DNA of 20,000 nt from an uncultured virus (IMG/VR IMGVR_UViG_3300005095_000031) (lineage: Duplodnaviria; Heunggongvirae; Uroviricota; Caudoviricetes). Of the stretch, positions 212-14,505 are shown one piece after another (position 1 is the first letter of the stretch; the number at the start of each line of letters is the position of its first letter). The position numbers were made by a program, and so were the translations under genes. Location: IMG/VR virus record IMGVR_UViG_3300005095_000031. One strand, written 5' to 3'. The notes below the pieces were generated by a model. It searched no databases, had not been told where the DNA came from, and worked only from the letters and a program-made list of their open reading frames with translations.

Positions 212-541
212 CTACGCCGCCATCACTTTTCTCCTGAAGGCACGAATAACGCAATCCTCATTCTCCTTGATCCTCTTGATGATCTTCTTGAAGAACTTGG
301 ATATCTTTTGATTTTCGTGCCACCTCACAACCCTACCATTCACGATTGCAACCCTTTCTCCCAGATCAATCTCTACGCAATCGAATCTGCTTCTGAGCAT
401 ATCGGCAAAGTCTCCGTAGTCAACCTCGGCAACAACGCCATAGTCATCAACAAGCTCTACTGAGTATCCTCCTACAAACTCGATAGCGTACTTAGGGCTT
501 CCGCAGACAACATCTGCAAATACCATCTCTACAGAGTTCAC
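212..541 (-). CDS. Hypothetical protein (109 aa)
   Basis: ORF overlaps the ligase stop (ATGA-type coupling) in a co-oriented gene run. Confidence 0.75.
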   Translation of the reverse strand: MNSVEMVFADVVCGSPKYAIEFVGGYSVELVDDYGVVAEVDYGDFADMLRSRFDCVEIDLGERVAIVNGRVVRWHENQKISKFFKKIIKRIKENEDCVIRAFRRKVMAA

Positions 542-1206
542 TTGAAGTCCTTGTATTTGATTTTTGTGATAATCCTATTCCCCATCCTGTCGAGGAGTCC
601 GCCAGCAGGAGTTCCAACGATTCCTTCTGCCTTGAAGTCTCCAAAAGCCGAAATCATCTCGTCTCCGGCTTCAGATTCAAGGCGGATGGCATCAACCGCA
701 TCGCTCAGAGACATGCGCTTCACGACCGGAACACACCTCATGTTGAGCTTTTTTGCGATTTGCTCTACGCTTTCGTGCTTCAGCCATACGCCGTTGACGA
801 TGGCATCAAACAGAATCACCTCATAGTCATCGAAACCATGCTTTCCTTTCTGAATCTTCTCTCCAACGCCTTCTCCGTACAGAACAACGGATTCGGCTTT
901 TTCAAACATATCCAGAAGGGTGTCGATGTTTTCGTACTCCCAGTTGTTGTACCAGTCTTGAAGAGGCTTCGGAATCTCAGCATTGTCGCTCTTGCCCTTG
1001 AAATCAACCTCCCAGGTATCAGGATTAACGATAATCCTAACGTTCATACCGTCAACTTTTTCCTTCCACTCCCACTCCACATCAGCAAGAGCCTTGAAGT
1101 TGGGATCGGCCCATTTTCCGACGATAAAATCGCCCTTCTTGTGTTCTCCGTCACTCTTTTCGTAACGCTTGAACACGCCATTGATTTTGTGATATTTCAT
1201 ATACAC
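538..1206 (-). CDS. ATP-dependent RNA ligase (Rnl2-like adenylyltransferase domain)
   Basis: Nucleotidyltransferase motifs in order: I KEKVDGMN, III LYGE, IIIa FDA, IV EGIV, V KIK. No OB-fold C-terminus as in DNA ligases. AAAGGAG lies just upstream. Confidence 0.85.
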   Translation of the reverse strand: MYMKYHKINGVFKRYEKSDGEHKKGDFIVGKWADPNFKALADVEWEWKEKVDGMNVRIIVNPDTWEVDFKGKSDNAEIPKPLQDWYNNWEYENIDTLLDMFEKAESVVLYGEGVGEKIQKGKHGFDDYEVILFDAIVNGVWLKHESVEQIAKKLNMRCVPVVKRMSLSDAVDAIRLESEAGDEMISAFGDFKAEGIVGTPAGGLLDRMGNRIITKIKYKDFK

Positions 1207-11056: not shown

Positions 11057-11107
11057 CGAAAATCAGTTGGTGGGCATGGTAGGACTCGAACCTACGACCA
11101 CCCCGTT

Positions 11108-11822
11108 CAGGTTTGTGAATGTTTCCATCCTCCCTGGACTATATCATCACCCTCATCATTACAAGTTAGGGTGTCGGACGCTAATGATGTATTACAAAGG
11201 ACGCTTCCTTTACCATCTAGTCTCTGCACCTTCCAATCAAGTTCGTGATTGGCTTGGCTCAGGATTGCCATTAGATTCCATATGAGTGGAACCACTTTCT
11301 TGCGGTCTTTTTTGTTACTTTATATTTGCTTGAGATATAGTCAATAGTTTTACCAGCAAGCTCTTCAGCTTTTGGTTTCTTAGACATATGCATATTTTTA
11401 CATACTACTGAACAAAACTTACTATTAGATCCGCCTAGCGGTTTATTGCACTCTATACATCTAAATCTTTTAGGTTCCCCTGAATTCATCCGATTCTCAT
11501 CTACAGATTTCTCTATAGTGACACAAGATAGCCAATTATGAAGCCTTGTATGGTCTGCTTTTGAAAGAAGAATAAGATTGTCGTCCCTGTTGTTTTCTTT
11601 GTTGCCATCTAAATGGTGCACTTCAAAACCGTCAGGAATAGTTCCAACCCTTTCCTCTATCACTGCAATATGTTCATATACATATCCTTCCCAGTTGTCA
11701 CTTTTCATCGCATATTTACTGTCAGGATTGTATACCAAAATATACCCATTAAGTCTTCTACTTTTTGGCATTTGGAATCCTTTTTGCCATAATAGCACAA
11801 GCAAATTAGAATACCAAACCTT
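11108..11822 (-). mobile_element. Group I self-splicing intron (715 nt) carrying an HNH endonuclease gene
   Basis: Exon ends in U and intron ends in G. P AATTCAGGGGAAC (11474-11486), Q GGCAATCCTGAGCCAA (11254-11269), R GGTGCAGAGACTAGATGG (11213-11230), S GATATAGTCC (11136-11145). P3 TCGGATG/CGTCCGA. P2 CTATAGA-GAAA-TCTGTAG. Confidence 0.93.
11271..11771 (-). CDS. Intron-encoded HNH homing endonuclease with C-terminal zinc finger (likely start MPKSRR)
   Basis: VHHLDGNKENNRDDNL...H HNH motif. CIEC...CSVVC. AAGGA SD before the ATG at 11771. Confidence 0.9.
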   Translation of the reverse strand: MPKSRRLNGYILVYNPDSKYAMKSDNWEGYVYEHIAVIEERVGTIPDGFEVHHLDGNKENNRDDNLILLSKADHTRLHNWLSCVTIEKSVDENRMNSGEPKRFRCIECNKPLGGSNSKFCSVVCKNMHMSKKPKAEELAGKTIDYISSKYKVTKKTARKWFHSYGI

Positions 11823-12034
11823 ATGAGCGGGGAGCTCTAACCAACTGAGCTACATGCCCGACTCTGCATTTCGCCGCCCAGAAATAAATCCAAACGGCAT
11901 GGCTGCAGAACACCATAGTAGTTTTTCCATCAAGGTGACTACCAAACACCGACAAAGCATCAATAAATACCTTGTCGGAATCTGGGTTCCAGCAAATATA
12001 TATACCCATTTGAAACACAAAAAGTTCATCAATA

Positions 12035-13032: not shown

Positions 13033-13400
13033 AACTGTATGTAGGCCGCATTTTGCACCTCTACAGATACAATAAACTGTCAGAGTACCGCTTCACGGCC
13101 TACTTAGTGCGAAGACCAGTCGGCTCCGGGCCACTAGTTAGTAATGAACAACTATCTAGTGGCCACTACCTGTCGCTCTTCACACTGCATAATTTAGACA
13201 CAAGACAATTATAGTCCCGACCCGGTGCTCATATTAGCACCATCCAGCCGTTACTAACAGGTTGTGTCACTTGTGTTCCCTCCAGTAGCTGTTAACTAAC
13301 TACAACCCCCTAAGGTTGTAGTTAGGGTTACTCTCCCTGGAAGGGCCGGATTTCACCTCTAAAATCTTTAACAAGACCTTAGAGGCGAAATCTTTCAGTT
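13033..13400 (-). ncRNA. Unassigned ~370-nt highly structured RNA candidate within the tRNA array
   Basis: Ends can pair (AACTG/CAGTT). Stems GATTTC.CCTCTAA/TTAGAGG.GAAATC, CTAACTACAACC/GGTTGTAGTTAG, GGTGCT/AGCACC, AGTGTGAAGA/TCTTCGCACT, GGCCACTAG/CTAGTGGCC, GTAGGCCG/CGGCCTAC. Confidence 0.55.
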
Positions 13401-13407
13401 TAATGTT

Positions 13408-13485
13408 TGGAGCCAGAGGCCGGATTCGAACCGACAAAAAAATCAGAATCTAATCTGACGTGTCTCCCACTTTCACCACTCTGGC
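13408..13485 (-). tRNA. Atypical tRNA or pseudo-tRNA with 6-nt anticodon loop (identity undetermined)
   Basis: Perfect GCCAGAG/CTCTGGC acceptor. T-arm GTCGG TTCGAAT CCGGC. TCAGA TTAGAT TCTGA anticodon arm. U7 variable region. T-CCA. Confidence 0.6.
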
Positions 13486-13491
13486 ATTTTA

Positions 13492-13583
13492 TGGTACCTC
13501 TGGCAGGATTCGAACCTGCATCAGCCGCTTATCTGGCGCTGACGGAGTATAAACCCGCTGCTTTACCGTTAAGCTACAGAGGT
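13492..13583 (-). tRNA. tRNA-Ile(UAU) with long variable arm
   Basis: ACCTCTG/CAGAGGT acceptor. GCGGG TT TAT AC TCCGT. Variable arm CAGCGC CAGATAA GCGGCTG. A73, CCA. Confidence 0.88.
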
Positions 13584-13634
13584 ATTAAGATATGGTGCAC
13601 CCTGCAGGACTCGAACCTGCGACCTATCGCTTAG

Positions 13635-14235
13635 CTTCCAGCATCATGTTTCCATGACCACCAAAAAAGCTTGGCTTGCTGGCTGGACCATTTCTTCACC
13701 ATTCCAGGTGGACTGCGTATGGCCTCTACGGTTCCTAATTGTCTTTAGTTACCTCGGAGTTGTCGTGTGACCTATACTCACTTACGAGATTCTCCGATAT
13801 AGCAGTCTCCACTTCATGTGTTATTCCGTTCAATTGTATAAAACGAGAAAACTTGCCCCTACAAGATGAACTACAGCATGTGTATCTAGTATTCTTTGAC
13901 AAAAATGTTTGACTACGTTCTCTATGGAATTCTTCTCCACATTGAGGACATTTCAGGATACACATCTTTCTTCCCGTTGAGGAATGTCTTCTTGCGTGCT
14001 CTGATTGACAAGTTAATTCAAGGTTGTCAATACAGTTGTTCTTCTTGTTTCCATCTACATGATGAACAATCTCACTTGCATCGAGAAGTCTTCCTAGGTG
14101 ATTCTCCATTATGATTCTGTGATGAAGAACATACCCGTGCTTTGTTGCGTTTGGGTGTCCTTTAACAACAGCGTAATCGTAGTCACCTTTCTTGACAATC
14201 TTCTCGATGTTCCACATGAAGGCTCCTTTAAGTTA
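13635..14235 (-). mobile_element. Group I self-splicing intron (601 nt) carrying an HNH endonuclease gene
   Basis: Exon ends in U and intron ends in G. P3 GACTGC/GCAGTC (13802-13807/13711-13716), P4 TCGGAG/CTCCGA (13792-13797/13754-13759), P6 GGT/ACC, P7 GGCCAT/ATGGTC, P8 CACC/GGTG, J8/7 AAGAA, P9 CATG-GAAA-CATG. Confidence 0.88.
13735..14217 (-). CDS. Intron-encoded HNH homing endonuclease with C-terminal zinc finger
   Basis: VHHVDGNKKNNCIDNL...H HNH motif. CPQC...CSSSC. AAAGGAG SD at 14223-14229. Confidence 0.9.
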   Translation of the reverse strand: MWNIEKIVKKGDYDYAVVKGHPNATKHGYVLHHRIIMENHLGRLLDASEIVHHVDGNKKNNCIDNLELTCQSEHARRHSSTGRKMCILKCPQCGEEFHRERSQTFLSKNTRYTCCSSSCRGKFSRFIQLNGITHEVETAISENLVSEYRSHDNSEVTKDN

Positions 14236-14286
14236 AAGGCGATTGCTCTATCCAACTGAGCTAAGAGTGCAAAATGCTTAACAAAA

Positions 14287-14361
14287 TGGCTCCGGATGCT
14301 GGATTCGAACCAGCGACCAAGCGGTTAACAGCCGCCTACTCTACCGCTGAGCTAATCCGGA
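14287..14361 (-). tRNA. tRNA-Asn(GUU)
   Basis: GGCGG CT GTT AA CCGCT, G73, CCA. Confidence 0.95.
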
Positions 14362-14416
14362 ATGATAAGCACGTCATACTATTGACTTAGTTTTTGTCAT
14401 TACTTATATAGAAAAA

Positions 14417-14505
14417 TGGCAGAGAGCAGCGGTCCCGACCCGCATGCGATAAAAACGCACCAACGGCTTAGCAGGCCGTGCCTGGCCCCGCCAGGTTTGC
14501 TCTCT
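14417..14505 (-). tRNA. tRNA-Ser(GCU) with non-canonical 8/4 fold
   Basis: 8-bp acceptor AGAGAGCA/TGCTCTCT, 5-bp D-stem CCTGG/CCAGG, ACGGC CT GCT AA GCCGT, variable arm, 4-bp T-stem GCGG GTCGGGA CCGC, G73, CCA. Confidence 0.85.

Follow-up and report, generated by a model that had tools for sequence, protein, structure and literature searches.

The interrupted tRNA-Arg(UCU) gene and its boundaries

The locus analysed here raises the question of what separates the two halves of a tRNA-Arg(UCU) gene in a viral genome: an intron, the remnant of one, or an unrelated gene that landed there. The gene occupies 14270-13593 on the minus strand of a 20,000-nucleotide stretch of an uncultured virus (IMG/VR record IMGVR_UViG_3300005095_000031), hereafter the window. 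An insert of 601 nt (14235-13635), preceded by U and with G as its last base, interrupts it after anticodon position 34 and before position 35. The window is probably part of a phage genome, and the insert lies in a tRNA cluster. A PHROG search left 6 of the 10 larger neighbouring ORFs without a match, and megablast of 13400-14500 against GenBank phages gave no match; no close phage relative is known from there. The parts of the gene are the following:

14236..14270, minus strand: 5′ exon of tRNA-Arg(UCU) (sequence and ARAGORN with introns allowed)
13635..14235, minus strand: group I intron, 601 nt, U −1 at 14236 and omega-G at 13635 (sequence, ARAGORN, boundaries of relatives)
13593..13634, minus strand: 3′ exon of tRNA-Arg(UCU) (sequence and ARAGORN with introns allowed)

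The 5′ exon, whose 3′ end reads ...AUCGCCUU, supplies the acceptor 5′ strand, the D arm, the 5′ strand of the anticodon stem and the loop bases C32, U33 and U34. The 3′ exon begins with CUAAGCGAU and contributes C35, U36, A37 and A38, the 3′ strand of the anticodon stem, the variable loop, the T arm and the acceptor 3′ strand, with an encoded CCA at its end. The first-pass annotation of this DNA had recognized an HNH-encoding group I intron here, whose removal would restore CT-TCT-AA. Excision of 14235-13635 indeed generates a 7-nt loop, CUUCUAA, with the anticodon UCU. Three cuts yield a loop of that size; only this one combines U −1 with a final intron G. Homologous introns of 17 other complete loci have identical boundaries, and G is the last base in all 18 complete copies with mapped boundaries (those 17 and the window). 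ARAGORN in its default mode reported 10 tRNA genes in the window, the interrupted tRNA-Arg(UCU) not among them, while the search allowing introns reported 13, including tRNA-Arg c[13593,14270] (tct) i(36,601).

The ribozyme core

The identity of the insert was assessed with a covariance model (R1) built from 22 relatives, the window being excluded. R1 has a single match in the window, at 13810-13635 of the minus strand (160.4 bits, E 5.4e-40), that spans model positions 1-173 of 173 and terminates on the last intron G. This full-length match, the insertion site and a GGAGC motif before helix P2 (see below) place the element in a family of introns found at position 34/35 of tRNA-Arg(UCU). Its core is complete, with P3, P4, P5, P6, P7, P8 and P9 in canonical order and a P3/P7 pseudoknot, as the first reading by eye had described for all of these helices except P5:

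13802..13807, minus strand: P3 5′ strand GACUGC, pairs with 13716-13711 (100% of cells paired)
13754..13797, minus strand: P4 (13797-13792/13759-13754) around P5 (13787-13784/13766-13763) and P5a (covariation)
13730..13753, minus strand: P6 (13753-13746/13737-13730; 100% paired, 3 compensatory pairs)
13719..13724, minus strand: P7 5′ strand GGCCAU, pairs with 13691-13686 AUGGUC (100% paired)
13711..13716, minus strand: P3 3′ strand GCAGUC, forms the P3/P7 pseudoknot (covariation)
13697..13710, minus strand: P8 hairpin CACC/GGUG (100% paired, 3 of 4 pairs compensatory)
13686..13696, minus strand: J8/7 (AAGAA) and P7 3′ strand AUGGUC (alignment, covariation)
13638..13682, minus strand: P9 (13682-13678/13642-13638) around P9a and P9b (13657-13653/13648-13644, GAAA loop) (covariation)

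Covariation, found in every helix, was counted over 12 distinct sequences and 42 proposed pairs in 8 helices (503 pair cells). The two bases pair in 98.6% of the cells, and 19 of the 42 pairs changed on both sides. No shuffled control scored as high (0 of 500), and sliding the partners by 1-3 columns lowered pairing to 35-43%. The middle pair of P3, for instance, is GC, AU, CG, GU or UA in different relatives. In P4 and P5 the paired share is 95.8% and 93.6%, and in each of them two-sided changes affect 2 pairs; in P9 and P9b it is 98.3% and 100%, with 3 and 4 compensatory pairs. In the window copy itself every proposed pair of P3, P4, P6, P7, P8, P9 and P9b is standard. Its P7, GGCCAU/AUGGUC, is a variant of the usual GACUAU/AUAGUC in which the two strands have changed in step; three relatives (L049, L080 and L106) show it too. 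The G-C pair that closes P7 (13724 with 13686) is invariant throughout the aligned sequences. L049, a copy from a tRNA-Lys gene, was considered as the closest relative because of this common variant; the idea was dropped, as the window copy shows 66-71% identity to all 11 relatives, with no outlier.

In most family members J6/7-P7 (GUAGAGACUA) and J8/7-P7′ (AAGAUAUAGUC) match the Rfam group I consensus. At gathering threshold Rfam gives no group I match at 13635-14235, and RF00028 applied to 13400-14500 and to 13625-13900 finds nothing even at E<=10. With the homologue L045 Rfam Intron_gpI scores 30.2 bits (E 1.1e-5), below the gathering score of 50, and assigns the same helices. The silence of Rfam ceased to count as a sign that no group I intron is present once homologues turned up: it is a limit of the general model, since the family-specific model gives 160 bits. 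RF00028 assigns 75.4 bits to the other intron of the window (11115-11551), where R1 has no match at E<=10. The independence of the two introns, claimed from the start, is therefore upheld. Their assignment to one family is not: they represent two separate tRNA-intron lineages that both carry an HNH_3 gene, and identity between the HNH proteins is 33% over 99 residues.

Membership of the insert in group I is thus supported by homology and covariation, and we infer that this copy splices. Very probably the insert belongs to the mobile group I introns of the type found in bacterial tRNA genes (IC3-like), lying between U34 and C35 of the tRNA-Arg(UCU) of a probable phage.

Contigs of public sequencing runs

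Four public runs were compared with the window as contigs, not reads. The best shares of the window's sampled words ranged from 0.16 to 0.08, none reaching half. In the DNA runs X2 and X6, one contig each contains a joint that skips exactly 13635-14235, with 36 letters on the shorter side and 85% likeness; the simplest reading is that other organisms there have tRNA-Arg(UCU) genes lacking the intron. The contigs of the four runs showed no spliced joint assignable to the window intron. Contigs of X1, an RNA library, cover 13635-13778 with 1 other letter and 1 gap, and 13854-14040 with 23 other letters; they also cover 14195-14265, spanning the 5′ splice site, in a type of library that can contain DNA. 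Contigs of X2 cover 13674-13881 and 13919-14226. The runs thus contain pieces of relatives. As a separate observation, one X1 contig ends its match exactly at 13635 and continues with 8 letters foreign to the window.

The lack of an assignable joint in these contigs would suit an element that is a group I intron by descent and no longer splices, for instance because of its P7 variant or because an ORF runs over its core. In that case a selfish HNH cassette would interrupt what has become a tRNA-Arg(UCU) pseudogene. The failure of Rfam on this copy and its unusual P7 point the same way, as does the tRNA complement of the window, whose 13 calls include a tRNA-Arg(CCU) without interruption and no tRNA-Arg(UCU) besides this one. 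We consider such a dead element unlikely. The P7 change is compensated and seen again in relatives, the core pairs are all standard, R1 matches over its full length with 160 bits, and neither the two splice-site bases nor the two tRNA halves are damaged.

Guide sequence, P1 and P2

The guide sequence, which could not be resolved by eye in the first-pass annotation, is proposed to be a conserved GGAGC located directly before P2 and 5 nt upstream of the ATG of the HNH gene:

14222..14226, minus strand: GGAGC, proposed internal guide sequence and Shine-Dalgarno sequence (conservation)
14213..14221, minus strand: P2 5′ strand CUUCAUGUG, which holds the HNH start codon ATG 14217-14215 (complementary to 13820-13812)
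13812..13820, minus strand: P2 3′ strand CACAUGAAG, codons of ...THEV... (complementarity, covariation)

In the proposed P1 the exon bases C-U-U would pair with G-A-G of GGAGC, U −1 (U34) forming a U-G wobble, and intron base +1 would pair with the first G. GGAGC is kept in all 32 family members at the 34/35 site, including ORF-less bacterial copies, and 31 of the 32 have U or C as base +1. Conservation in ORF-less introns, which need no ribosome site, argues for a guide role. So does L085, an intron inserted two bases later (36/37, after an exon ending ...UCU), which has GGA in place of GGAGC, matching its exon end. In phage copies the motif may also serve as ribosome-binding site. The putative P1 comprises only 3-4 bp and its exon side is nearly invariant, hence pair-by-pair covariation is thin and the exact register is a proposal. 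Two other candidates for the guide were discarded: GAGGC in J6/7 (13726-13722) varies among relatives, reading GAGAC in L045, and GGGGC at ~13855 is coding sequence and not conserved either. No conserved P10 was found among the relatives; CUUA in L1 with exon UAAG could form one in the window copy, is missing in relatives and was not adopted.

A P2 helix of 7-9 bp is present in all 14 distinct phage and metagenome copies. It shows compensatory changes, as between CUUCAUGUG/CACAUGAAG in the window and CUUGAUGUG/CACAUCAAG in L051. P2 is a long-range pairing around the HNH gene, whose AUG forms part of the helix.

The HNH gene inside the intron

One gene is encoded within the intron:

13735..14217, minus strand: putative HNH homing-endonuclease ORF, 160 aa (Pfam HNH_3, PHROG, alignment with relatives)

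Its ATG is intron base 19 and its TAG (13737-13735) lies inside the 3′ strand of P6, in agreement with the first description of an ORF that starts about 18 nt into the intron and reads through P3-P6. The last ~30 codons are encoded by P2′-P6 of the ribozyme. The protein combines an HNH_3 domain with a Cys-rich, zinc-ribbon-like part. Pfam HNH_3 (PF13392), whose cut-off is 24.8 bits, matches residues 32-76 with 43.6 bits (E 2.3e-11), and PHROG HNH endonuclease families match with a best E of 1.7e-19. Residues H52, H53, N61, N65, H74 and H78 are invariant in 4 homologues, as are some further residues of the HNH_3 region. A tblastn search of GenBank phages with the window HNH protein retrieved 273 records; identity stayed below 60% in every one, and query coverage never reached 80%.

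Decay of the ORF was counted in 11 of 14 family ORFs. Four of these 11 are truncated or deleted, to 26 aa in L049, 16 aa in L051, 134 aa in L052 and 108 aa in L057, so the HNH gene decays readily. In L051, with the ORF deleted to 16 codons, P2 and the core are nonetheless retained. A recent inactivation of the window copy could be invisible in the sequence.

Family distribution and free-standing relatives

The same intron family was recovered in IMG/VR, a JGI metagenome and a GenBank phage. IMG/VR contains 15 loci at position 34/35 of tRNA-Arg(UCU) and 2 further ones in tRNA-Lys(UUU), also at 34/35; these counts exclude the window, whose contig is absent from the collection searched, an exact 25-mer of it having 0 matches. 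One JGI metagenome contig carries the intron, and an ORF-less copy is found in one 484-kb GenBank phage. Contigs of bacterial metagenome-assembled genomes (MAGs) hold 18 loci of the ribozyme family, 17 at tRNA-Arg(UCU) 34/35 and one (L085) at 36/37. Among the cousins in bacterial tRNA-Arg(UCU) genes are ORF-less ones and ones with a PD-(D/E)XK gene; in acidobacterial copies the protein is PDDEXK_5 (PF11645, E 8e-39). The pairing of host gene and site, described at first as uncommon, is so in the literature read but not in sequence data, with 15 IMG/VR and 17 bacterial MAG loci at this site. The suggested link to jumbo phages is not established, only 2 of 18 IMG/VR contigs being longer than 200 kb. 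Targets without the intron are frequent, 42 IMG/VR stretches containing the exact 20-nt sequence of the spliced junction.

Homologous HNH genes also stand free beside tRNA-Arg genes. In L001 the gene and the 5′ end of a tRNA-Arg(UCU) overlap, and in L044 it lies 63 nt after a tRNA-Arg(CCU). Their proteins begin with MW(N/I)I, and the tails hold AISEN in L044 and the diverged AVDNN in L001. Such genes, together with an RNA ligase-like ORF in the window (538-1206; PHROG 548, E 4.2e-15), might suggest that the insert is no intron: a free-standing HNH gene would have landed in the tRNA gene, and the RNA would be repaired by proteins or not at all. This would leave unexplained the covarying P2-P9 helices, the exact U/G boundaries and the ORF-less homologues with the same boundaries. 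It is very improbable, the covariation and the R1 match already disfavouring it strongly.

For the group I intron favoured here, mobility is a distinct question. The ribozyme might work in an intron that is immobile and descends only vertically, the HNH protein being inactive or having another role (an aid to RNA folding, or attack on host or competitor DNA without homing). Such an intron would fit the decayed ORFs of 4 of 11 relatives and the persistence of ORF-less copies in bacteria and in the 484-kb phage. It would fit poorly with a window ORF of full length and conserved HNH_3 region, and with a family that is present on many unrelated contigs and also occupies position 34/35 of another tRNA, Lys(UUU), a spread that is the pattern predicted by mobility. 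We find immobility improbable. The spread of the family, its move to tRNA-Lys(UUU) and the free-standing relatives are circumstantial support for a role of the window protein as a homing endonuclease. Six states of the one ribozyme lineage were seen: no ORF, a PD-(D/E)XK gene placed in the P6 region, an HNH gene in P2, a decayed ORF, residence in tRNA-Lys(UUU), and free-standing HNH relatives next to tRNA-Arg genes.

Comparison with known introns and endonucleases

Bacterial and plastid group I introns in tRNA anticodon loops (IC3) are known from Leu(UAA) ("Leu.3Ug"), Arg(CCU) ("Arg.5Ug"), fMet ("2Ug") and Ile2(CAU) ("5Ug"), and 17 further bacterial tRNA intron classes have been reported (Williams 2020, bioRxiv 10.1101/2020.01.27.920355). 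The window intron resembles IC3 tRNA introns in its place in the anticodon loop, its U −1, its terminal G and its compact core. It shares position 34/35 with the Leu(UAA) intron and, like bacterial tRNA introns, has homologous copies in chromosomal tRNA-Arg(UCU) genes of bacterial MAGs. Unlike the classical IC3 introns, it has a tRNA-Arg(UCU) in a phage-like genome as host, bears within P2 an HNH gene overlapping the core, and escapes Rfam. A known tRNA-gene intron with its own endonuclease encodes I-Ssp6803I, of the PD-(D/E)XK class. The window intron likewise lies in a tRNA gene and has its own endonuclease, and its acidobacterial cousins carry PDDEXK_5, but its enzyme is HNH_3 placed in P2, and host tRNA and genome type differ.

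In the td intron of phage T4, I-TevI is controlled by sequestering its ribosome site. Among phage introns, protein-coding genes host HNH-bearing group I introns, such as the DNA polymerase intron with I-PfoP3I treated in part of PMC3428280. The window element is similarly phage-borne, has an HNH gene and appears to bury its translation start in RNA structure. It differs from the I-PfoP3I and td introns in that the host gene is a tRNA, the ribosome site would be the guide itself, and the ORF tail is ribozyme core. Phage introns known to 2014 were all in protein-coding genes according to the section concerned of Hausner et al. 2014 (PMC3984707). In their tRNA passages, Devoto et al. 2019 (PMC6784885) call the tRNA-gene introns of Lak megaphages "enigmatic" and report testing them against Rfam. 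They share with the window intron a phage tRNA gene as host and are likewise missed by bacterial-mode tRNA finders. Those passages neither classify them nor mention an endonuclease gene (PMC6784885), whereas the window element is demonstrably of group I and has an HNH gene. SegB, a free-standing homing endonuclease in the T4 tRNA gene cluster, promotes inheritance of that region, as the pertinent part of PMC2330249 relates. The free-standing HNH relatives beside tRNA genes recall it; SegB is a GIY-YIG enzyme and, unlike the window HNH, lies outside any intron. The literature searched described no phage tRNA-Arg gene with a group I intron and no such element in other phage tRNA genes, though the class table of Williams 2020 may list the site for bacteria. 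New here are the P2 around the HNH gene, the proposed double role of GGAGC, the ORF-less and PD-(D/E)XK-carrying bacterial cousins, the tRNA-Lys(UUU) sisters and the free-standing HNH relatives.

Proposed mechanism and significance

The tRNA cluster would be transcribed from the minus strand and the intron RNA would fold on its guide through P1. P2, of 9 bp, would close off a loop of ~390 nt with most of the HNH gene, and P3 to P9 would build the core. Free guanosine would attack after U34, the terminal G (13635) would enter the G site, and the exons would be joined to a normal tRNA. The 160-aa enzyme would cut or nick intron-less tRNA-Arg(UCU) genes of co-infecting relatives, this being its predicted specificity, and repair would copy the intron into the cleaved gene. 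With GGAG as presumed ribosome-binding site and the AUG paired within P2, ribozyme folding and HNH translation would be mutually exclusive.

A wider reading is offered tentatively, as possible rather than probable: intron and endonuclease gene may be fused as dual-use sequence, the guide being the ribosome site, the start codon part of a P2 pair and the ~30 last codons P2′-P6. Each RNA would then either splice or yield HNH protein, and the free-standing HNH genes would be escapees. If true, the element has a built-in switch by which the tRNA matures first and the enzyme is made only from misfolded RNA or released intron. An escapee origin of the free-standing genes, if true, would reverse the usual picture of a free endonuclease gene invading an intron.

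Since the default tRNA finder and Rfam both miss the gene, the only tRNA-Arg(UCU) among the window's 13 tRNA calls would be missing from codon-usage and tRNA-repertoire analyses, and the same loss probably affects many phage and MAG annotations. The family offers a concrete, bench-testable answer to the tRNA introns called "enigmatic" in the Lak passages, and it contrasts with the protein-coding-only picture given in that section of the 2014 review. Its six states form a natural series for how introns and endonuclease genes associate, and the overlaps of guide with ribosome site and of ORF tail with core would make it a compact case of coding sequence doubling as structured RNA.

The split tRNA-Arg(UCU) gene

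The minus strand carries every gene in the part of the window around two separated tRNA halves, which lie between tRNA-Asn and a tRNA-Ile-like gene.

Split tRNA gene and its neighbours
14361-14287 (-): tRNA-Asn, neighbour
14270-14236 (-): 5' tRNA half, ending in ...AUCGCCUU
14235-13635 (-): insert of 601 nt
13634-13593 (-): 3' tRNA half, starting with CUAAGCGAU, with encoded CCA end
13583-13492 (-): tRNA-Ile-like gene called Ile(UAU), 92 nt

Removal of 14235-13635 restores the anticodon loop CUUCUAA, which identifies a tRNA-Arg(UCU) interrupted between positions 34 and 35. Three cuts yield a 7-nt loop and only this one has U at position −1 and G as the final insert base. The tRNA-Arg(UCU) gene was missed in the window by Rfam and by ARAGORN with default settings, but intron-permitting ARAGORN identifies tRNA-Arg c[13593,14270] (tct) i(36,601), in agreement with the excision proposed in the first-pass annotation. 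A single long ORF (14217-13735 (-), 160 aa) lies within the insert and matches Pfam HNH_3 (43.6 bits; cut-off 24.8) and, among PHROGs, HNH endonucleases.

Evidence for a group I ribozyme core

A full group I core can be drawn by eye in 14235-13635 but Rfam Intron_gpI has no match at the split tRNA-Arg, not even when short stretches are scanned at E≤10, and relatives were therefore sought as a test. The same Rfam model scores 75.4 bits on the window's other intron (11115-11551). A search with the HNH protein identified one metagenome contig (L045, 56% identity) with a similar insert at the same position of another tRNA-Arg(UCU). Intron_gpI does match this copy (30.2 bits, E 1.1e-5; below the gathering score of 50) and its helices agree with those drawn by eye. 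A degenerate 21-nt pattern spanning J6/7-P7-P3' was then used to search IMG/VR. It retrieved 23 loci: 18 members of the same family, two other group I introns and three chance matches. Boundary mapping defined 14 distinct intron sequences, including that of the window. The 42 proposed pairs of P3, P4, P5, P6, P7, P8, P9 and P9b were counted over 12 of the 14 sequences, which are 66-71% identical to the window. Pairing is found in 98.6% of the 503 cells and 19 of the 42 pairs display changes on both sides. None of 500 shuffles reached the observed pairing and compensation, while shifting the partners by 1-3 columns left 35-43% paired.

Model R1, a covariance model trained on 22 relatives and not on the window, has a single match in the window (13810-13635 (-), 160.4 bits, E 5.4e-40). 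The match is full length and its last base is the terminal G, which settles membership of a group I family. The window's P7 is GGCCAU/AUGGUC rather than the usual GACUAU/AUAGUC, a variant compensated on both strands and common to some relatives, which explains at least in part why Rfam misses this copy. Covariation and the R1 match thus bear out the initial reading of an HNH-encoding group I intron in tRNA-Arg(UCU), and 14235-13635 is almost certainly a genuine one.

P2, the candidate guide sequence and the overlapping ORF

Comparison of the copies shows P2 to be a long-range helix.

Strands of P2
14221-14213 (-): 5' strand CUUCAUGUG, with the ATG within; pairs with 13820-13812
13820-13812 (-): 3' strand CACAUGAAG, within the codons of ...THEV...; pairs with 14221-14213

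Since the strands lie at the ORF start and in the ...THEV... codons, the P2 loop houses most of the HNH gene. Each of the 14 distinct copies has a 7-9 bp helix here. It covaries (CUUGAUGUG/CACAUCAAG in L051; CUGUAUGUG/CACAUGCAG in L045) and is kept even in the copies whose start codon is altered or lost (L049, L068, L069). The ORF-less bacterial cousins have a plain hairpin as their P2 at that position (e.g., CUGUGCGGG...CUUGCACAG). The ORF continues through P2', P3, P4 and P5 to a TAG stop (13737-13735) in the P6 3' strand, the course through the core that had been noticed at first pass; in relatives it ends anywhere from P6 to past P8.

The sequence GGAGC is found immediately 5' of P2 in all 32 members inserted at the 34/35 site. 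These include ORF-less bacterial introns, for which a ribosome site would serve no purpose, and this argues for its conservation at the RNA level. The GAG is complementary to the exon end CUU, with U34 facing G, and for the first G a partner is available in intron base +1 (U or C in 31 of the 32). Locus L085, from a Pseudomonadota MAG, is inserted two bases later in a tRNA-Arg(UCU) and has an exon end UCU and GGA where the others have GGAGC, consistent with a guide role. We propose GGAGC (14226-14222) as the guide sequence, in what would be a short helix of putative register. Comparison thus provides a candidate for the guide that inspection by eye had left unresolved. In ORF-bearing copies GGAG lies 5 nt 5' of the ATG, a normal spacing for a ribosome site.

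Relatives in phages and bacteria

Fifteen of the 17 complete IMG/VR loci lie within tRNA-Arg(UCU). In the two others (L049 and L058, which are identical) the same 34/35 position of a tRNA-Lys(UUU) is occupied, flanked by CCUU and UUAAGC. In their intron (688-1299, oriented coordinates) the HNH ORF ends at 26 codons and the ribozyme helices are intact. The only GenBank phage match is LR756508.1, a 484-kb uncultured phage with two ORF-less mini-introns of this family.

Introns of LR756508.1 (at 675-943 and 1074-1325, respectively)
193 nt: in tRNA-Lys(UUU), R1 108 bits
175 nt: in tRNA-Arg(UCU), R1 101 bits

A tRNA-Glu lies between these Lys and Arg introns; the record carries no annotation.

The 21-nt pattern also identified 36 loci in bacterial genome contigs. 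R1 matches 18 of them, 11 by construction because they had been used to build it and seven independently. These 18 loci lie in MAG contigs labelled Acidobacteriota/Pyrinomonadaceae, Chloracidobacterium, Bacteroidota, Caldilineaceae, Pseudomonadota and Actinomycetota. The insertion is at 34/35 of tRNA-Arg(UCU) in 17 cases and at 36/37 in L085 (832-1042 (-); 121.9 bits with R1, which included this locus). The first-pass annotation had regarded the host/site pairing as uncommon and saw the two elements as pointing to a family in jumbo phages. Neither inference is supported: the intron family is widespread, and only two of the 18 IMG/VR contigs exceed 200 kb.

The bacterial introns come in two sizes: ORF-less ones of 218-253 nt (ARAGORN) and long ones of about 640-650 nt. 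L073, the one long version examined, has an insertion in the P6 region that encodes a 137-aa PD-(D/E)XK endonuclease (PDDEXK_5, E 8e-39) and cuts the R1 match in two. The match is also split in L087, L091, L099 and L100, which carry a similar coding sequence at that position; these five are Acidobacteriota and Chloracidobacterium MAGs. With PD-(D/E)XK in the P6 region and HNH in P2, one ribozyme lineage gained two unrelated endonuclease genes in different loops.

Decay and mobility

In four of the 11 HNH-type copies tabulated, the ribozyme is intact but the ORF truncated or deleted, as is usual when a homing element decays. Two HNH homologues, 50% and 59% identical along the entire length, are free-standing (L001 and L044). 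The first bases of an intact tRNA-Arg(UCU) lie within the L001 gene and that of L044 lies 63 nt 3' of a tRNA-Arg(CCU). Both retain the protein from the MW(N/I)I start on; the tail AISEN is kept in L044 and diverged to AVDNN in L001. In the intron, the codons for this start and tail form part of P2 and P3-P4, whose RNA pairings are absent from both free-standing genes. Retention of the protein ends without the pairings suggests, but does not prove, that these genes escaped from an intron. Targets lacking the intron abound, with the exact 20-nt spliced junction present in 42 IMG/VR stretches.

Other features of the window

The window's other intron lies at 11068-11859 (-), where a 715-nt group I intron splits a CAU-anticodon tRNA after the anticodon. 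Its ORF (177-aa HNH_3, 11804-11271 (-)) likewise runs through the ribozyme core. R1 has no match to it and the two HNH proteins are 33% identical.

The Ile(UAU)-called tRNA (13492-13583 (-)) has a long variable arm, unusual for this identity (Rfam tRNA 63.3 bits, 19-nt insertion). A tRNA-like gene at 13408-13485 (-) has a 6-nt anticodon loop, UUAGAU (ARAGORN tRNA-?(Leu|Ser)(ag); Rfam tRNA 39.5 bits). The segment 12117-12390 (-) displays three T-arm-like motifs (GGTTCGAnTCC) within G+C-rich hairpins. It contains no tRNA by default ARAGORN or Rfam and no group I signal; intron-permitting ARAGORN proposes c[12117,12365] to be a tRNA-Lys(ttt) with an insert of 153 nt, and a tRNA-Ala(tgc) is also proposed when the threshold is relaxed. 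Candidate explanations for the motifs are fragments of tRNAs, unusual tRNA-like genes and scars of mobile-element traffic. An ORF at 538-1206 (-), ~11 kb away from where the tRNA cluster begins, matches phage RNA ligase families (PHROG 548, E 4.2e-15). Six of ten larger neighbouring ORFs tested, including one of 1919 aa (10448-4689), have no PHROG match.

Literature context

Williams 2020 (bioRxiv 10.1101/2020.01.27.920355) presents four classes (Leu.3Ug, Arg.5Ug, fMet.2Ug, Ile2.5Ug) and reports 17 more, which likely include the Arg(UCU) 34/35 site because MAG copies exist. According to Hausner et al. 2014 (PMC3984707), the phage introns seen by then were all in protein-coding genes despite the many phage tRNA genes. 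Devoto et al. 2019 (PMC6784885) describe 'enigmatic' introns in Lak megaphage tRNAs and, according to these authors, phage tRNA introns were previously unreported. Our literature search turned up no account of a phage tRNA-Arg gene interrupted by an HNH-carrying group I intron.

Proposed splicing and homing

Contigs of public sequencing runs, which cover only pieces of relatives, contain no spliced joint assignable to the window's intron. A 151-nt contig of RNA library X1 aligns to 13635-13778 with one other letter and one gap. It ends exactly at the last intron base, followed by eight letters that do not align to the window; these may come from a different 3' exon or from the junction of an intron circle, or may mark the end of an assembly.

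The element is an IC3-like tRNA intron whose HNH gene is built into P2 and overlies the core; the genome around it is phage-like. The best-supported reading is that ordinary group I self-splicing would restore tRNA-Arg(UCU) and that the HNH protein would drive homing into intron-less tRNA-Arg(UCU) genes; overall, the window copy probably splices and is mobile in this way. As the candidate guide is also the ribosome site and the AUG lies in P2, this anatomy implies that folding for splicing and translation initiation should compete, as would be expected on every RNA molecule.
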